A stretch of DNA of 64,000 bases from Savitreella phatthalungensis (Eukaryota). Position 1 is the stretch's first letter, and each line of letters begins with the position of its first letter. The notes beneath the pieces are model-generated. The model had not been told where the DNA came from and did not search any database. It saw only the letters and a program-made list of their open reading frames with translations. A program made the translations under genes and the position numbers. Positions 7,805-45,735 of the stretch are shown here, in pieces. The DNA lies in assembly GCA_051599415.1 (NCBI GenBank), contig AP039702.1:124001-188000 (forward strand), read 5' to 3'.

Positions 7805-8288
7805 CACGAGATTTAGAAGAGTCTCTCAGCACATATACCTGTATCCTGTGAGCTCAGACCTTCGCCGCGTCAAGCTAGTCTGAGGAGACCAGTCGTCTCG
7901 TGATGGCCTCCTTTCCAGGCTGTGAAGCTAAAGGGTGAAGAGAACCGAGAGCTGAGGATTCGTTGCTGAATCGTGCGCGTCTGTTGCTGAAGAGAATAGA
8001 TATGGCATTTTTTGTGCATCCACGCACATATGGATTCACTCGATCGAATGTGGTTGTGTGTATATAGAGCTAGAGGCAAGGAAAGTATCACGTGATTCAA
8101 TCATGGAAGCCACACCGTCATCAATTGACCGAATGGAAATGCTCACCCATGGTACGCTTGACTCATGCGCAATAAGCGTACGATCTCTAGAACCACCGTT
8201 CCGAAGGCTTTGGTGGGCTCACTTGGCTGTGGATCTTGCACAAGTCCGTCGATCGTCGTGTCATTTATCTGTCCGCCATCATTTGATC

Positions 8289-8714
8289 ATGGCAACAGAA
8301 TCCACAGAAGACGCAGACTATGCAGCATTCCTCAGCAGGAGTCAAGCTCAGTATGAGCGCGGGCAGAATCTTCAGGCTTCTACCGAGAAATATAGCGCCA
8401 AAACGCACGGACAAAGGATTGGCAGCAAAACACTGAGCTCAGAATCTGAAGAGGACTTTGTCAGCTTTAAGATCGAGGCGCATGACCACACGAGCTTCGC
8501 TTCAGCTCTGGGTGTGCCAGAAGATAGCTGCCAAAGTGTGCCTCTGTCGGAGTATGAAGATTTCACAGAAGTGCTGGATTACACGCGCTCACTGGGAGGT
8601 CGCAATGATCCAGTGGTATATGAGGTCACGCAAGGCACCAGAATTCATGTCTATATCGCTGTACGAGTGAAGGGCAAATGGGTCGGCGCCAAGAGCATCA
8701 AGATTGAGTCGTAA
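8289..8714 (+). CDS. Small uncharacterised protein with NuiA (nuclease A inhibitor)-like motifs, 141 aa
   Basis: Likely start ATG 8289 (MATESTEDADYAAFLS). 'LSSESEEDF' and C-terminal 'DPVVYEV...IHVYIAVRVKGKWVGAKSIKIES' resemble the NuiA pattern. The CDS is likely; the family assignment is inference. Confidence 0.65.
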   Translation: MATESTEDADYAAFLSRSQAQYERGQNLQASTEKYSAKTHGQRIGSKTLSSESEEDFVSFKIEAHDHTSFASALGVPEDSCQSVPLSEYEDFTEVLDYTRSLGGRNDPVVYEVTQGTRIHVYIAVRVKGKWVGAKSIKIES

Positions 8715-14474: not shown

Positions 14475-15530
14475 TTACGCAGCTGCAGCCTTTGCTTGCT
14501 GCTCTCCGTCCAAATGTTTGAATGCTTCCGCAGATTCGTTCGAGTCGACTGCCATGCTGTCAAACTCGCTCGTCACCATGCGCTCGAGCTTGGCTGCACG
14601 TGTTGGGGCGTTAATGCTGGATAGATCCATTTTGCGCTCGGGATTTGAGCCTGTAGCGGACTGAGACGACTGCGGGGGGAGTTCTGACTTCTGGGCGCTC
14701 CTGTCCGCTTCTGCGCGCTGCAGGACAGCCAGTGATTCTGAAGGATTCGGACCACTTCCCTGAACAAACTTGTATTGGCCGGACTGTGCTTTTGCTGACT
14801 CTGTACCTTCAGAGTTCTTTGCGCCCTGCTCGTTCTTCTCTTTCTGCTCTCGCATGTGTTCCAAGTAGCGCTGTGAGTATCTGACGCAGCCTTCTGGGTC
14901 GTTTCGAAGCTCAATGATCTGCTCCTGGTTGACGCGACGGTTGAGATCCTGCAGCTGGGCATCTGGGATCGTGCTTGCAAACAGCTTCAGCCCTGACATT
15001 CCGCTCCACTTCTTCATTGCGGGACTGACATTCAATGCCAACCTGAGCGGAAGGCTTGCCGCGTTCGGAATCATCTCGCTGACTGCCAGTGCATACAGTT
15101 CCGTGTCGAGTGAGGCAGCTGTGTGTGACTGGTACGGCGCAGCGAAGATGTGGCTGATCTTCCCGTCTCCCGTGCCTACGTAAGACGTCAAAATCATGTC
15201 TCTGACAGTCATTCTGCGAGCGCTGAAGTTTGGTCGAAGAGAAAAGAGCACATCAAGTGTACCAAGCCGATCCGCGTTGTCGATCGCCTGGAAGTATAGC
15301 TCTTCGAGTGAATGACTGTACACGATTTCCGACACAGCTTTGAAGTTTTTGTCAAAGACCTTATAATGCAGCAATGGCGAGTCCTTGAAGTGCTCATGGG
15401 TATTGCCAGTCGGCTGTGGAGCATACACTCCGCTTTCACCGCGCACTAGCTTGAGCGTCTCTTGTGCAGCCTCAACGGCTTTCCGCACAGTCGTGCTGTC
15501 AGATCTGGTCTGCGATGCTGACTTCTGCAT
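14475..15530 (-). CDS. Hypothetical protein, 351 aa
   Basis: Long ATG-initiated ORF with protein-like composition; no family recognised. Confidence 0.65.
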   Translation of the reverse strand: MQKSASQTRSDSTTVRKAVEAAQETLKLVRGESGVYAPQPTGNTHEHFKDSPLLHYKVFDKNFKAVSEIVYSHSLEELYFQAIDNADRLGTLDVLFSLRPNFSARRMTVRDMILTSYVGTGDGKISHIFAAPYQSHTAASLDTELYALAVSEMIPNAASLPLRLALNVSPAMKKWSGMSGLKLFASTIPDAQLQDLNRRVNQEQIIELRNDPEGCVRYSQRYLEHMREQKEKNEQGAKNSEGTESAKAQSGQYKFVQGSGPNPSESLAVLQRAEADRSAQKSELPPQSSQSATGSNPERKMDLSSINAPTRAAKLERMVTSEFDSMAVDSNESAEAFKHLDGEQQAKAAAA

Positions 15531-16104: not shown

Positions 16105-17871
16105 ATGGACGCATTCTATCGCAAGGCATGCCTCCAGGCAGCCTTGAACCACTACGCTGCTTGAAGAGACGGCCAGAAACCGTCTCTTTGTGATGCTGCA
16201 GCAGAGTATAGCGTTTCACCCAGCACTTTGAGGCATCGGCTACTGAACGGCAATAGGACTGCCTCAGAGGCTGCCAGAGAGCGCCAAAAGCTGACAGAAT
16301 CACAGGAGAAGGCTCTGGTAGACATGCTGCACAGAAGGTCTGCAGTAGGCTATCCTATGACTCCTGGGGAGGTCACTAGCCTAGCAGACAAATTTTTTGA
16401 AGCTCGCGGCAGCACAGTGCACCTCGGAATGCGCTGGTTTCCTTCCTTCAAATTACGCCATCCTGACATCCACACAGTGCGCAGCAATTGCATCGACCAC
16501 AGCCGCATGTACGCGGTGGATTCAGCTACTGTGGAGGCCTATTTCAAGATCCTAGGCACCTATCTTCAAGGGGAAGCGATCCTGCCTGAGGATGTGTGGA
16601 ATGCTGACAAATCTGGCCTCATGATGGGCCGTTCCCAGTCCTCCCAGGTGGTGGTTCCACTGCTGCAGAAGGGTAAGAAGCGCGCTGTGGCAGCAGACAA
16701 TGGAGATCGCGAAAGAGTCAGCTGTATAGCCTGTGTTTCTGCTGCAGGTGCCCATTTACAACCAGTTCTGGTGTTCAGGCGCACTCAGGCGAAGAGGGAG
16801 GCCTGTGGAAAGGCTGTGGAGGCTGGGCTGGCGCCTCCTGACGAGGCAAAGTACCTAGGCACGCCTGGAAACGCTGTACGCGTGTTTCACTCGAAAAACG
16901 GCTTCCTCACGTCCCAGTTAATCGTCCAGTGGCTACAGGAGGTCTTCCTGCCTGCCACAGCACAAGATCCACCGAGGACGCGCGTCCTAGTGATCAATGG
17001 CGCCTGCGCTCACGCCACGCACAAGGTCATGTACGAATGCGCGAAAAATGGCGTCAAACTGGTTTATCTGCCTGCCCACAGCTCCCACCTCACACAGCCG
17101 CTCAACCTAGCCGTGTTCTCGCCTTTGAAGAACTACTATGGGCAGGCAGTGAAGGTACTCAGCCGCAGGCTAGCTGGCAGACCCTGGGGGCGCGAAGAAT
17201 TCATCTCGATCTTTCTCGGCGCCTGGCAGAAGGCGCTGAACCGCCAGAACATCACCTCTGGCTTCAGACAAGGAGGTATCTGGCCCTATGACCCACAGGC
17301 GGTGCGCCAAAGCGTGCTCTCCTACAACAATTCAGTCAAACCTGCCTCGGAAGCTGCGAAAAGGCCAGAAAGGCCTGCCTTGGCCACCCTGACCACTCAT
17401 GCAGCCAATACACTGCCCAAAACGGTCAAAGCGACACGCGCAACACTGCAGGCAGCTGGAAAAGAGCAATATGCAGTGCTAGAGCTAGCACTCGAAGAGA
17501 ACGCGCGAAAAGATCGCCTCATTGATGAACTTAGGACTACTGCAGAGCAGCTCCAGTTCATGATCGCCGATAGGGACGAGACTATAGCAGCCCTGCAGGC
17601 CAAGGCCTTGCGTCCTAGGGCAGCCTTCAAGGCACAGCAGCTGGCTAGAGGAGTGGACTGGCTAAAAAGCTTACTCGGCGAAGACTACACAGATATGAGG
17701 TGGCACTGGATCGCAGCAAAGGCGAGGGCTGCTAAAATCGAGCCTAGAGCATGGATAGAGGCACAGGACCAGGCTGCCTTACTTTCAGAGCTAGCGCTGG
17801 TGATTCCATTGAATAGCGAGCAATCTACGGAGAAGGTGTCTTCGAAGAGGCGACAAAAAAAACGTGTGTGA
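16105..17871 (+). pseudogene. Inactivated pogo/Fot1 transposase (HTH_psq + CENP-B-type HTH + DDE_1)
   Basis: ATG 16105 is in frame with ORF 16228..17871 but interrupted by TGA at 16162-16164. Motifs 'WNADKSG', 'VLVINGACAH', 'YLPAHSSHLTQPLNLAVFSPLK' match the family consensus (N.DETG, LL.LDGH.SH, QPLDV..F.PLK) with acidic residues lost. Confidence 0.92.
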
Positions 17872-27557: not shown

Positions 27558-28280
27558 CTAGACGTACTGAGCAGTCAGGTGGTAGGCAGCGCAGTTGGGG
27601 TTCTCAGTTGTCGTCTGGACACCGGAGAAGTCACGGTGGGTTCCGGTGAAGATGATCTGTCCGAAGGACGAGTCGGTACCGATGTTGCAGCCGTACCAGG
27701 TGTTCTCACCGTTGTACATCAGGTAGTTGGTGGCAGAGTCGATCGAGAAACCCTTCTGCGCCTGTGTCAGGTCGGCAATGTAGTTGCACTGCAGCTGCTG
27801 CTGAGGGTACGAGATCTCGCAAGCACGGCTGTACTGGTCGAAGAGCTGGCCGTTCTGGACGGAGAAGACAGACTTGATCGCAGCGTTCTTGTCCGAGTCA
27901 AAGTCGACGGCGGGGTAAGGAGAGTTGCACTGGATCTGGCCGTCCTTGATCTGACCGGCAGGCTTGACTGGGCAGGCCATGGTCCAGTTCTTCGGGGCGT
28001 CGGGCTTGCAGCCTGGCGGGAACTTCGGTGTAGGTGGCTTGTCCACCTTTCCTGGGCAGAGGTGGGGCAGGTCCCAGTTCCAGTTCTGAGGGTAAGGCCA
28101 GTTGTCGGGGCAGTTCTTCCATCCTGCAGGAGGCCATGAAGGAAGAACGGCACCGTGTGACCACCACCACTTGATCAAGAATGCCCAGAGACCGAGCGAG
28201 CCGGCGGTGGCCATGGGTGCTGCCATGACGACAGGGGTGAAGGCGCTAGTGGCCAAGACGGCGAGTGTGATGAACTGCAT
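27558..28280 (-). CDS. Secreted PIR/Cis3-like cell wall protein
   Basis: Signal peptide, one PIR-like repeat 'GQIKDGQIQ', and a C-terminal Cys-containing domain ('NGQLFDQYSR', 'GFSI', 'WYGC', 'C..YHL'); strong codon bias. Confidence 0.75.
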   Translation of the reverse strand: MQFITLAVLATSAFTPVVMAAPMATAGSLGLWAFLIKWWWSHGAVLPSWPPAGWKNCPDNWPYPQNWNWDLPHLCPGKVDKPPTPKFPPGCKPDAPKNWTMACPVKPAGQIKDGQIQCNSPYPAVDFDSDKNAAIKSVFSVQNGQLFDQYSRACEISYPQQQLQCNYIADLTQAQKGFSIDSATNYLMYNGENTWYGCNIGTDSSFGQIIFTGTHRDFSGVQTTTENPNCAAYHLTAQYV

Positions 28281-41146: not shown

Positions 41147-41671
41147 TTACGTATTCCTTCTCTGCTGCAAATTTGCGAGCATGCCTGTGGACAACTTACT
41201 TGTGAACAAGACGATTGCGATAGACACTAGCGCCCTTGGACCTCTGCGCCGGAAGTTACGCTTGACAATATCCTTGGCAGGCTGCCAGTATTCGAGGGCG
41301 CTGAACTCGTACCACTCCTCGCATTGCCGGAAGCACAGACCGGCAGCTGCAGCGATGCTTGCAAATCCGAGGAGCCACTGCCACCATGAAGGAAGCAGAT
41401 ATGGTTTTTGAGCGAGCAAATACGCGTACCAGCTGGTCCAGTAGATTGCGATGAAGAAGTAACTGTACGCCAACATCTCTACATAGTCCTTTGGTGACTT
41501 CAAGTTCTCAGGCACTGCCTCACCCCAGTGCTGCGGATTTGTCGTGTTGCTAGAGAAAGGATTGAGTACATTGTTATTGCGCACGTTGGATTGAGAAGAC
41601 TTCTGATATCCTGGCGTTTGTGAGAAGCCGGTGGATTGTTGATAACCATAATCACGAGACATGCTTAGCAA
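41147..41671 (-). CDS. Hypothetical membrane protein, about 3 TMs
   Basis: 174 aa ORF with a polar N-terminus and three hydrophobic/aromatic segments. Confidence 0.6.
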   Translation of the reverse strand: MLSMSRDYGYQQSTGFSQTPGYQKSSQSNVRNNNVLNPFSSNTTNPQHWGEAVPENLKSPKDYVEMLAYSYFFIAIYWTSWYAYLLAQKPYLLPSWWQWLLGFASIAAAAGLCFRQCEEWYEFSALEYWQPAKDIVKRNFRRRGPRALVSIAIVLFTSKLSTGMLANLQQRRNT

Positions 41672-42557: not shown

Positions 42558-43811
42558 ATGAGTCCAAGCGATCACGGGACGCGACTAGTCCGACAAAGAA
42601 GTTACCTGCTGGACGACGTACTACACAATCTAGAGGGACGGCCTAGAACATCATCGCCGCGCCGACCTCTTGCTCTTCTTGGCAACTCATCTCCTCAAAC
42701 GCTCAACACGATGGCACCTCAGCTCAAAGCCAATCAGTCTGACTTTCACTTTGCAGTTCCTTCTCTGCCACCTGCAAAGCAAGCGCGACCACGGCTGACG
42801 AGTAAGAATTCAATGCTCTCCCTATGCGTGGAACGATCTCGGTCTCAGTCGCCACGCAAGCGCCGTCGAGTCGGGCAGAACGGTAGCGATGCTTCTAGCA
42901 TTCCCGGCGCCGACAGTGAAATTGAGGATGCCTTGTCACATGATTTTGACGAAATCGTCTCCTTCGATGCAGTTCTCGGCAAACAAGCGCAGATGCGCAC
43001 TGAGCCACTCGCTCCTATTCTTGCCCCGGCACTGGCAAAACCGACCTTGGCGACTACTGAGGTCAGCGTTGGCGCTAGAGGCATCGCCGACGCTCGAAGT
43101 TCACCTTCACAGCGCTTGGGCGAACCCTCGACGCCGCGCGTCCTGCCGCGTGCTCTGAGACCTGCGCGCAGTGCTGTTGATCTCCTCAGACAGTACACTC
43201 ATGAAATTGATCAGCGTGTACATAAACCCGAGGGCTATGCAGTCTTACAACATACACCTGACACTGGCGTCGAGAAGCATACACCTGGTTTCACCGTGCA
43301 TAGACGTCGCACTGACTTGCTCCGGACACCTGTGCTCGATCAAAGCTGCAGTGGTGGCAGTCGGCAGCATCACAATCCCAATGCAAGCAACGACGCGGAC
43401 AGTCCACTGGCACACCGACATGCGCCCGCGTTACGACACGCCAGGTCGCTCGGTGACGGGCTCGGCATTGATTTCGCCCAACTGGGCTCTCCTGAGCTGA
43501 CGAAGTCATTCGTCACTCCGACAAAGCGCGTTCATCCCCACGATCGTGCGACAGCACTTCTATCGCAGTGGTCTCCGCCAACGCCAGACTCCGTGGTCGA
43601 CGGCATCCATCGACGTCAAGCGATAGGCGGCAGCACAGGTTCTGCCGGTGCAGATGTCGCCAATCGATCACTGGACGTATTTCGTGGGGTTGGCACTGCC
43701 TTTATGTCCATGCTGGGATTCGCCGGTAGCAGCAGCCGTTCATCACGGCCACCGACATCGTCGATGACGCGTCATACACGTCTCAGAACGCCTCGCCGCG
43801 TCTATCGATGA
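42558..43811 (+). CDS. Hypothetical Ser/Pro/Arg-rich, probably disordered nuclear protein
   Basis: 417 aa ORF with many SP/TP sites and an NLS-like 'PRKRRR'; no family recognised. Confidence 0.7.
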   Translation: MSPSDHGTRLVRQRSYLLDDVLHNLEGRPRTSSPRRPLALLGNSSPQTLNTMAPQLKANQSDFHFAVPSLPPAKQARPRLTSKNSMLSLCVERSRSQSPRKRRRVGQNGSDASSIPGADSEIEDALSHDFDEIVSFDAVLGKQAQMRTEPLAPILAPALAKPTLATTEVSVGARGIADARSSPSQRLGEPSTPRVLPRALRPARSAVDLLRQYTHEIDQRVHKPEGYAVLQHTPDTGVEKHTPGFTVHRRRTDLLRTPVLDQSCSGGSRQHHNPNASNDADSPLAHRHAPALRHARSLGDGLGIDFAQLGSPELTKSFVTPTKRVHPHDRATALLSQWSPPTPDSVVDGIHRRQAIGGSTGSAGADVANRSLDVFRGVGTAFMSMLGFAGSSSRSSRPPTSSMTRHTRLRTPRRVYR

Positions 43812-45159: not shown

Positions 45160-45735
45160 CTACTTGAGGACAGTGTGCCGGATTGGCATGTTCTTGTGCT
45201 GAGTAGAAGGTACAGTCGCTCTCGCGGCCGAAGAGGCCGCCCTTTGTCGCGTAGGCGATTGATGTTCTAGTGCAGCGGTGGAACGTGCCAGAGACGGCGT
45301 TGCGCCAGGTCTAGGAGCCGCAGGTCGATTGTCTCCTGCAGGTGTCGAGCGGCCGCTCGGAGAACATCCAGAGTCTTCTTCCACGCAGTGTCTGTAAGCC
45401 TCCTGAGCACGATATCCCCGCACTCTGTCGTAATCAGCAGTCCTGTGTATTCCTTTGTGCTTCAAGGTCGCTGTCGGAAGGGGCGTCGGGCCAGGTGCTT
45501 TGACAGCCGTGTATATCACGAGTGGCCGCGTTGCAGACTCAGACGAGCATGGCGTAGCCATCGCGATTTCATCGAGAGGCGGTGGTTCAAATGGCTCATT
45601 ATCGAAGAGCTTGTTGATCCAGATTTCCGGTCGACCTTCCGTTTGCTTACCGGGCCAAAGCCGAGCAAGGAGCCCCTTTGCTTGTGCCGAAGCCACTAGA
45701 AGAACGATGTTCATCAATAGCGTGCGCAGCAACAT
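45160..45735 (-). CDS. Hypothetical secreted protein
   Basis: Signal-peptide-like 'MLLRTLLMNIVLLVASAQA' followed by a Pro/Thr/Ala-rich mature region. Confidence 0.55.
   Translation of the reverse strand: MLLRTLLMNIVLLVASAQAKGLLARLWPGKQTEGRPEIWINKLFDNEPFEPPPLDEIAMATPCSSESATRPLVIYTAVKAPGPTPLPTATLKHKGIHRTADYDRVRGYRAQEAYRHCVEEDSGCSPSGRSTPAGDNRPAAPRPGATPSLARSTAALEHQSPTRQRAASSAARATVPSTQHKNMPIRHTVLK

Follow-up and report, generated by a model that had tools for sequence, protein, structure and literature searches.

The closest described system is that of NuiA from Nostoc/Anabaena sp. PCC 7120 (PF07924; 2O3B chain B, 1J57), the inhibitor of the secreted nuclease NucA, in which Glu24 of the inhibitor is said to mimic the scissile phosphate, a finding reportedly made by Ghosh et al. 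in 2007. Excerpts of the published accounts state that the C-terminal Thr of NuiA (Thr135) coordinates the catalytic Mg2+ of NucA (PMC5587815, PMC2790893) and that the inhibitor competes with DNA (PMC5758888). Inhibitor and nuclease genes adjoin each other in this system: a convergent NucA gene lay within 3 kb of nuiA at 75 of 80 cyanobacterial loci, a sample kept from 121 confirmed loci that consists of close relatives of linked seeds and does not give a family-wide rate. Three of the five nuiA loci without NucA are truncated by contig ends; the remaining two (L011 and L049) have a full 3-kb downstream flank with no match to NucA and are possible orphan inhibitors. A eukaryotic parallel is EndoGI of Drosophila (3ISM), whose acidic residues, according to excerpts of PMC2790893, block the active site of EndoG, as in the role that we propose below; the same excerpts propose that EndoGI protects from EndoG that leaks or fails import, and hold that it arose independently of bacterial inhibitors. 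In S. cerevisiae, the EndoG-family nuclease Nuc1 undergoes programmed release from mitochondria into the cytosol in meiosis and attenuates cytosolic viruses (excerpts of PMC6697816). Among the matches listed in searches of titles and the beginnings of abstracts, with subscription journals outside their coverage, none described a protein that inhibits fungal Nuc1 or a NuiA-like protein in fungi.

Here we describe a NuiA-like protein of Savitreella phatthalungensis, a Taphrinales yeast. The gene lies in a stretch of 64,000 nucleotides, called the window:

8289 to 8714, + strand: gene of the NuiA-like protein, a single exon encoding 141 aa of PF23151 (net charge -7), matched once in the genome
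8103 to 8288, + strand: upstream in-frame extension, probably untranslated (start of a homologue, codon score, 4-base deletion in another strain)

Like NuiA, the protein is acidic and has no export signal; it shares with NuiA an SESE-type motif and a terminal hydroxyl residue in register, and NuiA is the best Foldseek match to its model. It differs from NuiA by an extra N-terminal helix and by the lack of the loop that carries D75/W76 in the cyanobacterial inhibitor. Whereas NuiA acts on secreted NucA, the target proposed here is the organellar, homodimeric Nuc1, and whereas nuiA adjoins its nuclease gene convergently, the fungal gene is flanked by Nup120 and MCM3 instead. EndoGI, a two-domain helical solenoid, is of an unrelated fold; the fungal protein is modelled as a single alpha/beta domain. 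The family is known at the level of sequence, and it is the function as a Nuc1 inhibitor that is newly modelled.

The 141-aa single-exon gene is genuine. Its reading frame is uninterrupted in translation from 8289 to 8714 on the + strand, and the codon log-likelihood of 8289-8711 is +0.065 per codon, against -0.23 to -0.74 in the other five frames and 0.08 to 0.25 in three held-out genes that served as yardstick. An upstream in-frame ATG at 8103 would give an open reading frame of 203 aa, a start that we rejected on three grounds: the closest homologue (P0002, 70% identical) begins at the same Met as the 8289 start; the extension 8103-8288 has a negative score of -0.244 per codon; and, as weak evidence from one low-depth contig, another strain carries a 4-base deletion at 8124, within the extension. 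The ATG at 8103 is therefore probably not used. An earlier note made from the DNA alone had described a protein of 141 aa with the segment LSSESEEDF, a particular C-terminal sequence and a terminal Ser, all of which we recovered: the segment occupies residues 49-57 and the protein ends in PVVYEVTQGTRIHVYIAVRVKGKWVGAKSIKIES followed by the stop, with Ser141 as its last residue. A helix motif given there as F.EVL....L is present as FTEVLDYTRSL, but with five residues rather than four between EVL and L. No hydrophobic signal segment was found in the 141-aa protein and no strongly hydrophobic N-terminus in any fungal homologue, which points to the cytosol or nucleus as the likely location.

By sequence, the protein is a divergent Taphrinales member of a catalogued fungal family. 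It matched the Pfam family PF23151 (NuiA_2, 'NuiA-like') with E=5.9e-9 and 36.7 bits over residues 7-137 (profile positions 2-152 of 154), and as this score exceeds the cut-off of 27 the resemblance goes beyond chance. The match is the single one in the genome. The best clusters in the ESM Atlas carry PF23151; their make-up is 98% eukaryotic, with Ascomycota in the majority. When 1.84 billion representatives were searched with phmmer, five matches were obtained at E<=0.001, and a five-row profile then recovered 42 fungal proteins out of 980 candidates limited to lengths of 73-251 aa. The named members of this set are ascomycetes only, including Protomyces, Taphrina, Dothideomycetes, Sporothrix and Geoglossum, and one bears the NCBI name 'Nuclease A inhibitor-like protein'. 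Removal of the eight longest proteins left an alignment of 34 rows, every one of which matched PF23151. Compared with other members of PF23151, our protein lacks the [DE][FW]D segment of 26 of the 42 homologues and has Asp in place of the motif Pro. The earlier note had spoken of an undescribed nuclease/inhibitor pair; this stands for the function, but the family itself is already in Pfam and one member has been named by NCBI. No function for PF23151 turned up in the literature searched, in which neither family identifier, PF23151 or PF07924, had a match.

In a gene tree of the 42 fungal proteins with 16 of the 80 cyanobacterial NuiA as outgroup, a design uninformative on any donor, the protein clustered with Protomyces and Taphrina (100/93), separate from Pezizomycotina. 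This topology fits steady vertical inheritance of the gene, and a recent horizontal transfer into S. phatthalungensis was rejected because the protein groups with its Taphrina and Protomyces orthologues. In a metagenome scan for the fungal gene neighbourhood, one locus was confirmed out of 182 pattern matches; none of its ORFs was recognised by eye as a nuclease, and there was no common synteny. None of 27 candidates was confirmed in a viral scan.

Relatedness to the cyanobacterial inhibitor, which the earlier note had put forward, is well supported by profile comparisons and moderately by the predicted fold. The single sequence is a poor probe: it missed PF07924 at E<=1, found nothing in the PDB, gave no hhalign match to the NuiA profile and had no match in NCBIfam. 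The fungal family as a profile behaved differently. PF07924 was matched by 22 of the 34 aligned homologues at E<=0.01, and in a search of the PDB with the 34-row, fungal-only profile the two NuiA sequences were the only matches at E<=10 (E 0.015 and 0.037). At E<1e-3 the fungal-only profile picked out 45 of the 80 NuiA ORFs from cyanobacteria, none other of 1759 ORFs being matched, and hhalign aligned the 34-row profile to five NuiA sequences with a probability of 93.7 and an E of 1.9e-7, both motifs being in register. With just five close rows the hhalign probability fell to 54%; the PDB search with a five-row profile returned ThreeFoil as its only match, which we discarded as spurious. A profile check thus succeeded with PF23151 and with the fungal family against NuiA, but not with the single sequence against PF07924, and on these sequence comparisons the protein is related to PF07924 without being a member of it. 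When residues 44-141 were searched in the ESM Atlas and PF23151 was set aside, all leads were below 0.9, the best being a cyanobacterial cluster with 14% PF07924.

The AlphaFold2 model, the single domain mentioned above, has a pLDDT that averages 71, rising to about 87 over residues 61-140 and falling to about 40-56 over residues 1-50. Foldseek ranked 2O3B chain B first, but at E 0.011 and TM 0.41/0.43, and in VIA-align the comparison with NuiA (Z 5.3, rmsd 3.7, 97 aligned) was tied with UL44 and Maf1. The model of the homologue P0031 gave the same first match with better values (E 4e-5, TM 0.50/0.58) and a VIA-align Z of 5.7 to NuiA, tied with Maf1. Identity to NuiA in the structural alignments is low, at 16-22%.

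Four elements of the protein concern us in what follows:

8310 to 8354, + strand: fungal-specific N-terminal helix, residues 8-22, D8-x-x-Y11-x-x-F14-L15, predicted to dock on a second patch of Nuc1
8439 to 8459, + strand: acidic motif S51-E52-S53-E54-E55-D56-F57, which registers with NuiA S23-E24-S25-E26-Y27-P28-F29 and places E52 at the Glu24 position
8637 to 8642, + strand: T117-R118 on a beta-hairpin, R118 being invariant in the 34-row alignment and predicted to contact Nuc1 R167
8703 to 8714, + strand: last three residues I139-E140-S141 with the stop, aligned by hhalign to NuiA V133-E134-T135

The functional motifs of NuiA are kept throughout the fungal set, as the earlier note had surmised for this one protein. 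The pattern S[ED][SA][DE]x[PD][FW] was found in all 42 proteins, with Glu or Asp at the Glu24-equivalent position in each; the Pro of the motif is near-invariant across homologues and is replaced by Asp only in our protein and P0002. All 42 likewise stop at Ser or Thr (41 of them in E[ST]), and the 80 cyanobacterial proteins all stop at Thr. Since the stop position is fixed though a local profile search tolerates extensions, these related and length-filtered rows suggest that a free C-terminus is required. Some of the best-conserved residues lie in the N-terminal helix, which the earlier note had overlooked: its DxxYxxFL signature is present in 42/42 fungal homologues versus 0/80 cyanobacterial NuiA, and the block has a pLDDT of about 50 in the monomer model, a low confidence when modelled alone. 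Conversely, the acidic-aromatic loop at NuiA D75/W76, present in 77 of the 80 cyanobacterial proteins, has no counterpart in our protein and its nine closest relatives; a loosely similar [DEH][WF][DN] segment occurs in 26 of the 42 fungal homologues.

A candidate target is encoded elsewhere in the genome, on a different contig and unlinked to the NuiA-like gene:

Contig C5, 278007 to 278924 (locus L002, 1348 to 2268), + strand: Nuc1, PF01223 profile match

This protein of 306 aa with an N-terminal hydrophobic segment is the one PF01223 (NucA/EndoG-family) nuclease found in the genome by an exon-by-exon scan, which can miss genes. The scan found none of the families PF14040, PF13930, PF13391, PF01844, PF07510 and PF04231 in this genome; each of these six nuclease families was matched in at least one control genome. 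Identity between Nuc1 and NucA is 32%, and in an alignment of 65 Nuc1 sequences out of the 120 matches listed every sequence keeps the NucA catalytic and basic residues (R103, D131, R132, H134, N166, R167, E174 and R178). Nuc1 ends in AKL, a tripeptide that is PTS1-like by the PTS1 consensus. Such an end ([SAC][KRH][LM]) occurs in 10 of the 120 Nuc1 homologues listed, Taphrina and Protomyces included, with nine within the 14 best-scoring and the tenth at rank 15; for comparison, one of 24 long ORFs of the window, a carnitine acetyltransferase-like gene, ends in this way. The sequences suggest a possible targeting of Taphrinales Nuc1 to mitochondria plus peroxisomes, and no paper on both PTS1 and Nuc1 was found among the matches listed. 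Fungal Nuc1 also has an invariant Cys288/Cys293 pair followed by a short tail (residues 288-301); excerpts of PMC6547421 describe a comparable C294/C299 hinge in human EXOG.

The pairing with Nuc1 was modelled, alignment-free, with ESMFold2, which folded the 141-aa protein together with two chains of Nuc1 (residues 46-306) and two Mg. The complex scored 0.93, 0.92 and 0.93 versus 0.63, 0.00 and 0.01 for controls, with at least 93% contact agreement between runs and a partner pLDDT of 86. In calibration, 51 of 78 solved pairs attained the score mark, versus 2 of 108 mismatched pairs (39 of 65 versus 2 of 126 for eukaryotes), counts that apply only roughly when a ligand is included. The prediction thus passes the complex check with the organism's own Nuc1 and, as a model, favours the EndoG/Nuc1-type partner that the earlier note had named. 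The unrelated control at 0.63 docked with 57 confident contacts and exceeded every calibration mismatch (0.34-0.59), which indicates that the Nuc1 dimer draws false partners.

Within the modelled complex, E52 contacts Nuc1 D131, R132, G133, H134 and N166; I139 contacts R167, N166, D131 and G162, with residues 140-141 within the interface; and T117 and R118 contact R167. Residues Y11, F14, L15, S18, Q21 and Y22 of the helix lie against Nuc1 L196, P197, T222, H223, V245, P247, A249, A266 and R269. Contacts with Mg do not appear in the output, and the model therefore carries no evidence for a contact between Ser141 and Mg. The predicted interface of 37 residues takes in twelve of the 16 positions that are most conserved (hypergeometric p 3e-5), which would explain the near-invariance of a helix seemingly detached in the monomer, with the reservation that the language model of ESMFold2 may itself prefer conserved residues at interfaces.

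Since NucA-NuiA (2O3B) and EndoG-EndoGI (3ISM) have both been solved, a passing score can reflect memory, and hence likeness rather than binding; the active-site docking in particular could have been memorised from 2O3B. For the helix contact the case is different. NuiA has no such helix, and the 75 cyanobacterial NucA differ from Nuc1 at 196, 197, 222, 223, 245, 266 and 269, so that this contact was likely not copied from 2O3B. The patch is kept in animal EndoG too, and its conservation is therefore no sign of co-evolution. The helix contact could also have been borrowed from another solved EndoG-family structure, for which the EXOG Wing is a candidate source (excerpts of PMC5418593 and PMC6547421). 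Nuc1 298 and 300-301 are part of the predicted interface, and the EXOG alignment reaches Nuc1 residue 296 only; in the model, the N-terminal helix of the inhibitor may sit where the EXOG Wing begins.

Taken together, these results make it probable, in our judgement, that the protein, descended from the NuiA family, acts in the cytosol or nucleus and inhibits Nuc1, the EndoG-family nuclease of the cell itself, by binding it at two sites. The NuiA-like core would plug the active site of Nuc1: in the model, Glu52 lies beside the DRGH motif and Asn166, which binds the metal, and the terminal IES lies beside Arg167/Asn166. A flexible linker would tether the fungal-specific helix, predicted to clamp L196/P197, T222/H223, V245/P247 and R269. 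By analogy with NuiA, the acidic loop would mimic the substrate phosphate, the terminal Ser would contact the catalytic Mg2+, and binding would block the cleavage of DNA and RNA. In a role like that of EndoGI, the inhibitor may protect cytosolic and nuclear nucleic acids from mis-sorted or released Nuc1.

Three other readings compete with inhibition of Nuc1. The NuiA fold and motifs may have been repurposed, the protein binding another metal-dependent enzyme or serving as a module for interactions that do not concern Nuc1; the low identity to NuiA, the similar Z-scores of Maf1, UL44 and PsbP/Mog1-type folds, the lack of linkage to a nuclease gene and the control that shows how the complex model can be fooled all speak for this. 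We nevertheless regard it as unlikely, given that both functional elements of NuiA are conserved in register with an invariant free terminal Ser or Thr, and that conservation is highest where the Nuc1 interface is predicted. Less probable again is a protein that binds Nuc1 with no tight block, in order to escort it, chaperone it or modulate it in part, for example in cytosolic transit or sorting. The bipartite model with its additional helix on a flexible linker and the missing D75/W76-type loop would suit such a role, as would the folded cytosolic pool that the PTS1-like end of Nuc1 would imply, and ICAD is a precedent for a chaperone that is also an inhibitor (excerpts of PMC2790893); against it, the modelled contacts fill the catalytic centre itself and the terminal Ser or Thr is retained in every homologue.

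The earlier note had left open whether the protein guards against leaked Nuc1 or against foreign nucleases, and it is the first of these options that we favour. Immunity to beta-beta-alpha-metal nucleases of bacteria or competing microbes, and not to the cell's own Nuc1, seems to us the most improbable of the readings, if by a narrow step. The bacterial relatives do inhibit a secreted nuclease and the active-site residues engaged in the model are common to bacterial enzymes, but the single genome match and the grouping with Protomyces and Taphrina fit vertical inheritance better than an arms race, and the conserved helix suits a patch of eukaryotic Nuc1/EndoG that is largely absent from cyanobacterial NucA.

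Returning to inhibition of the cell's own Nuc1, a broader proposal strikes us as evenly poised between holding and failing: that PF23151 comprises the missing fungal Nuc1/EndoG inhibitors, a NuiA of bacterial type kept at least since the split of Taphrinomycotina and Pezizomycotina, to which a helix was added that clamps the eukaryote-type nuclease surface, and which would set a threshold for released Nuc1 in cell death, meiosis or antiviral defence, in Taphrinales perhaps alongside a peroxisome-targeted pool of Nuc1. If inhibition is correct, a widespread uncharacterised fungal family would gain a function, a NuiA-type inhibitor would be seen to act on a eukaryotic EndoG, and fungal Nuc1 control would become testable by a two-protein assay with defined point mutants; modelled in this way, the 141-aa protein may be a fungal safety catch against a mitochondrial enzyme that cuts DNA and RNA.

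The surroundings of the gene agree with the earlier note's observation that the window holds no cognate nuclease, none of NucA/EndoG type having been recognised among its ORFs. By Pfam, the gene stands head-to-head with a Nup120/160 nucleoporin gene and has MCM3 downstream. The nucleoporin and NuiA-like genes share an intergenic stretch of 484 bases (window 7805-8288), possibly a bidirectional promoter. Among the 15 ORFs of the window covered by the Pfam scan, a DDE_1 transposase was the sole nuclease-type match, and it is unrelated. At E<=0.001 there was no Pfam match for the ORFs at 14475-15530 (- strand), 41147-41662 (- strand), 42558-43811 (+ strand) and 45160-45735 (- strand), the last of which starts with a signal-like hydrophobic segment. 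Two further features of the window are:

16324 to 17871, + strand: DDE_1 transposase, an intact ORF of 515 aa (Pfam)
27558 to 28280, - strand: protein of 240 aa whose N-terminus is signal-like, with a Trp/Pro-rich segment and, at the C-terminus, a PIR1-like domain
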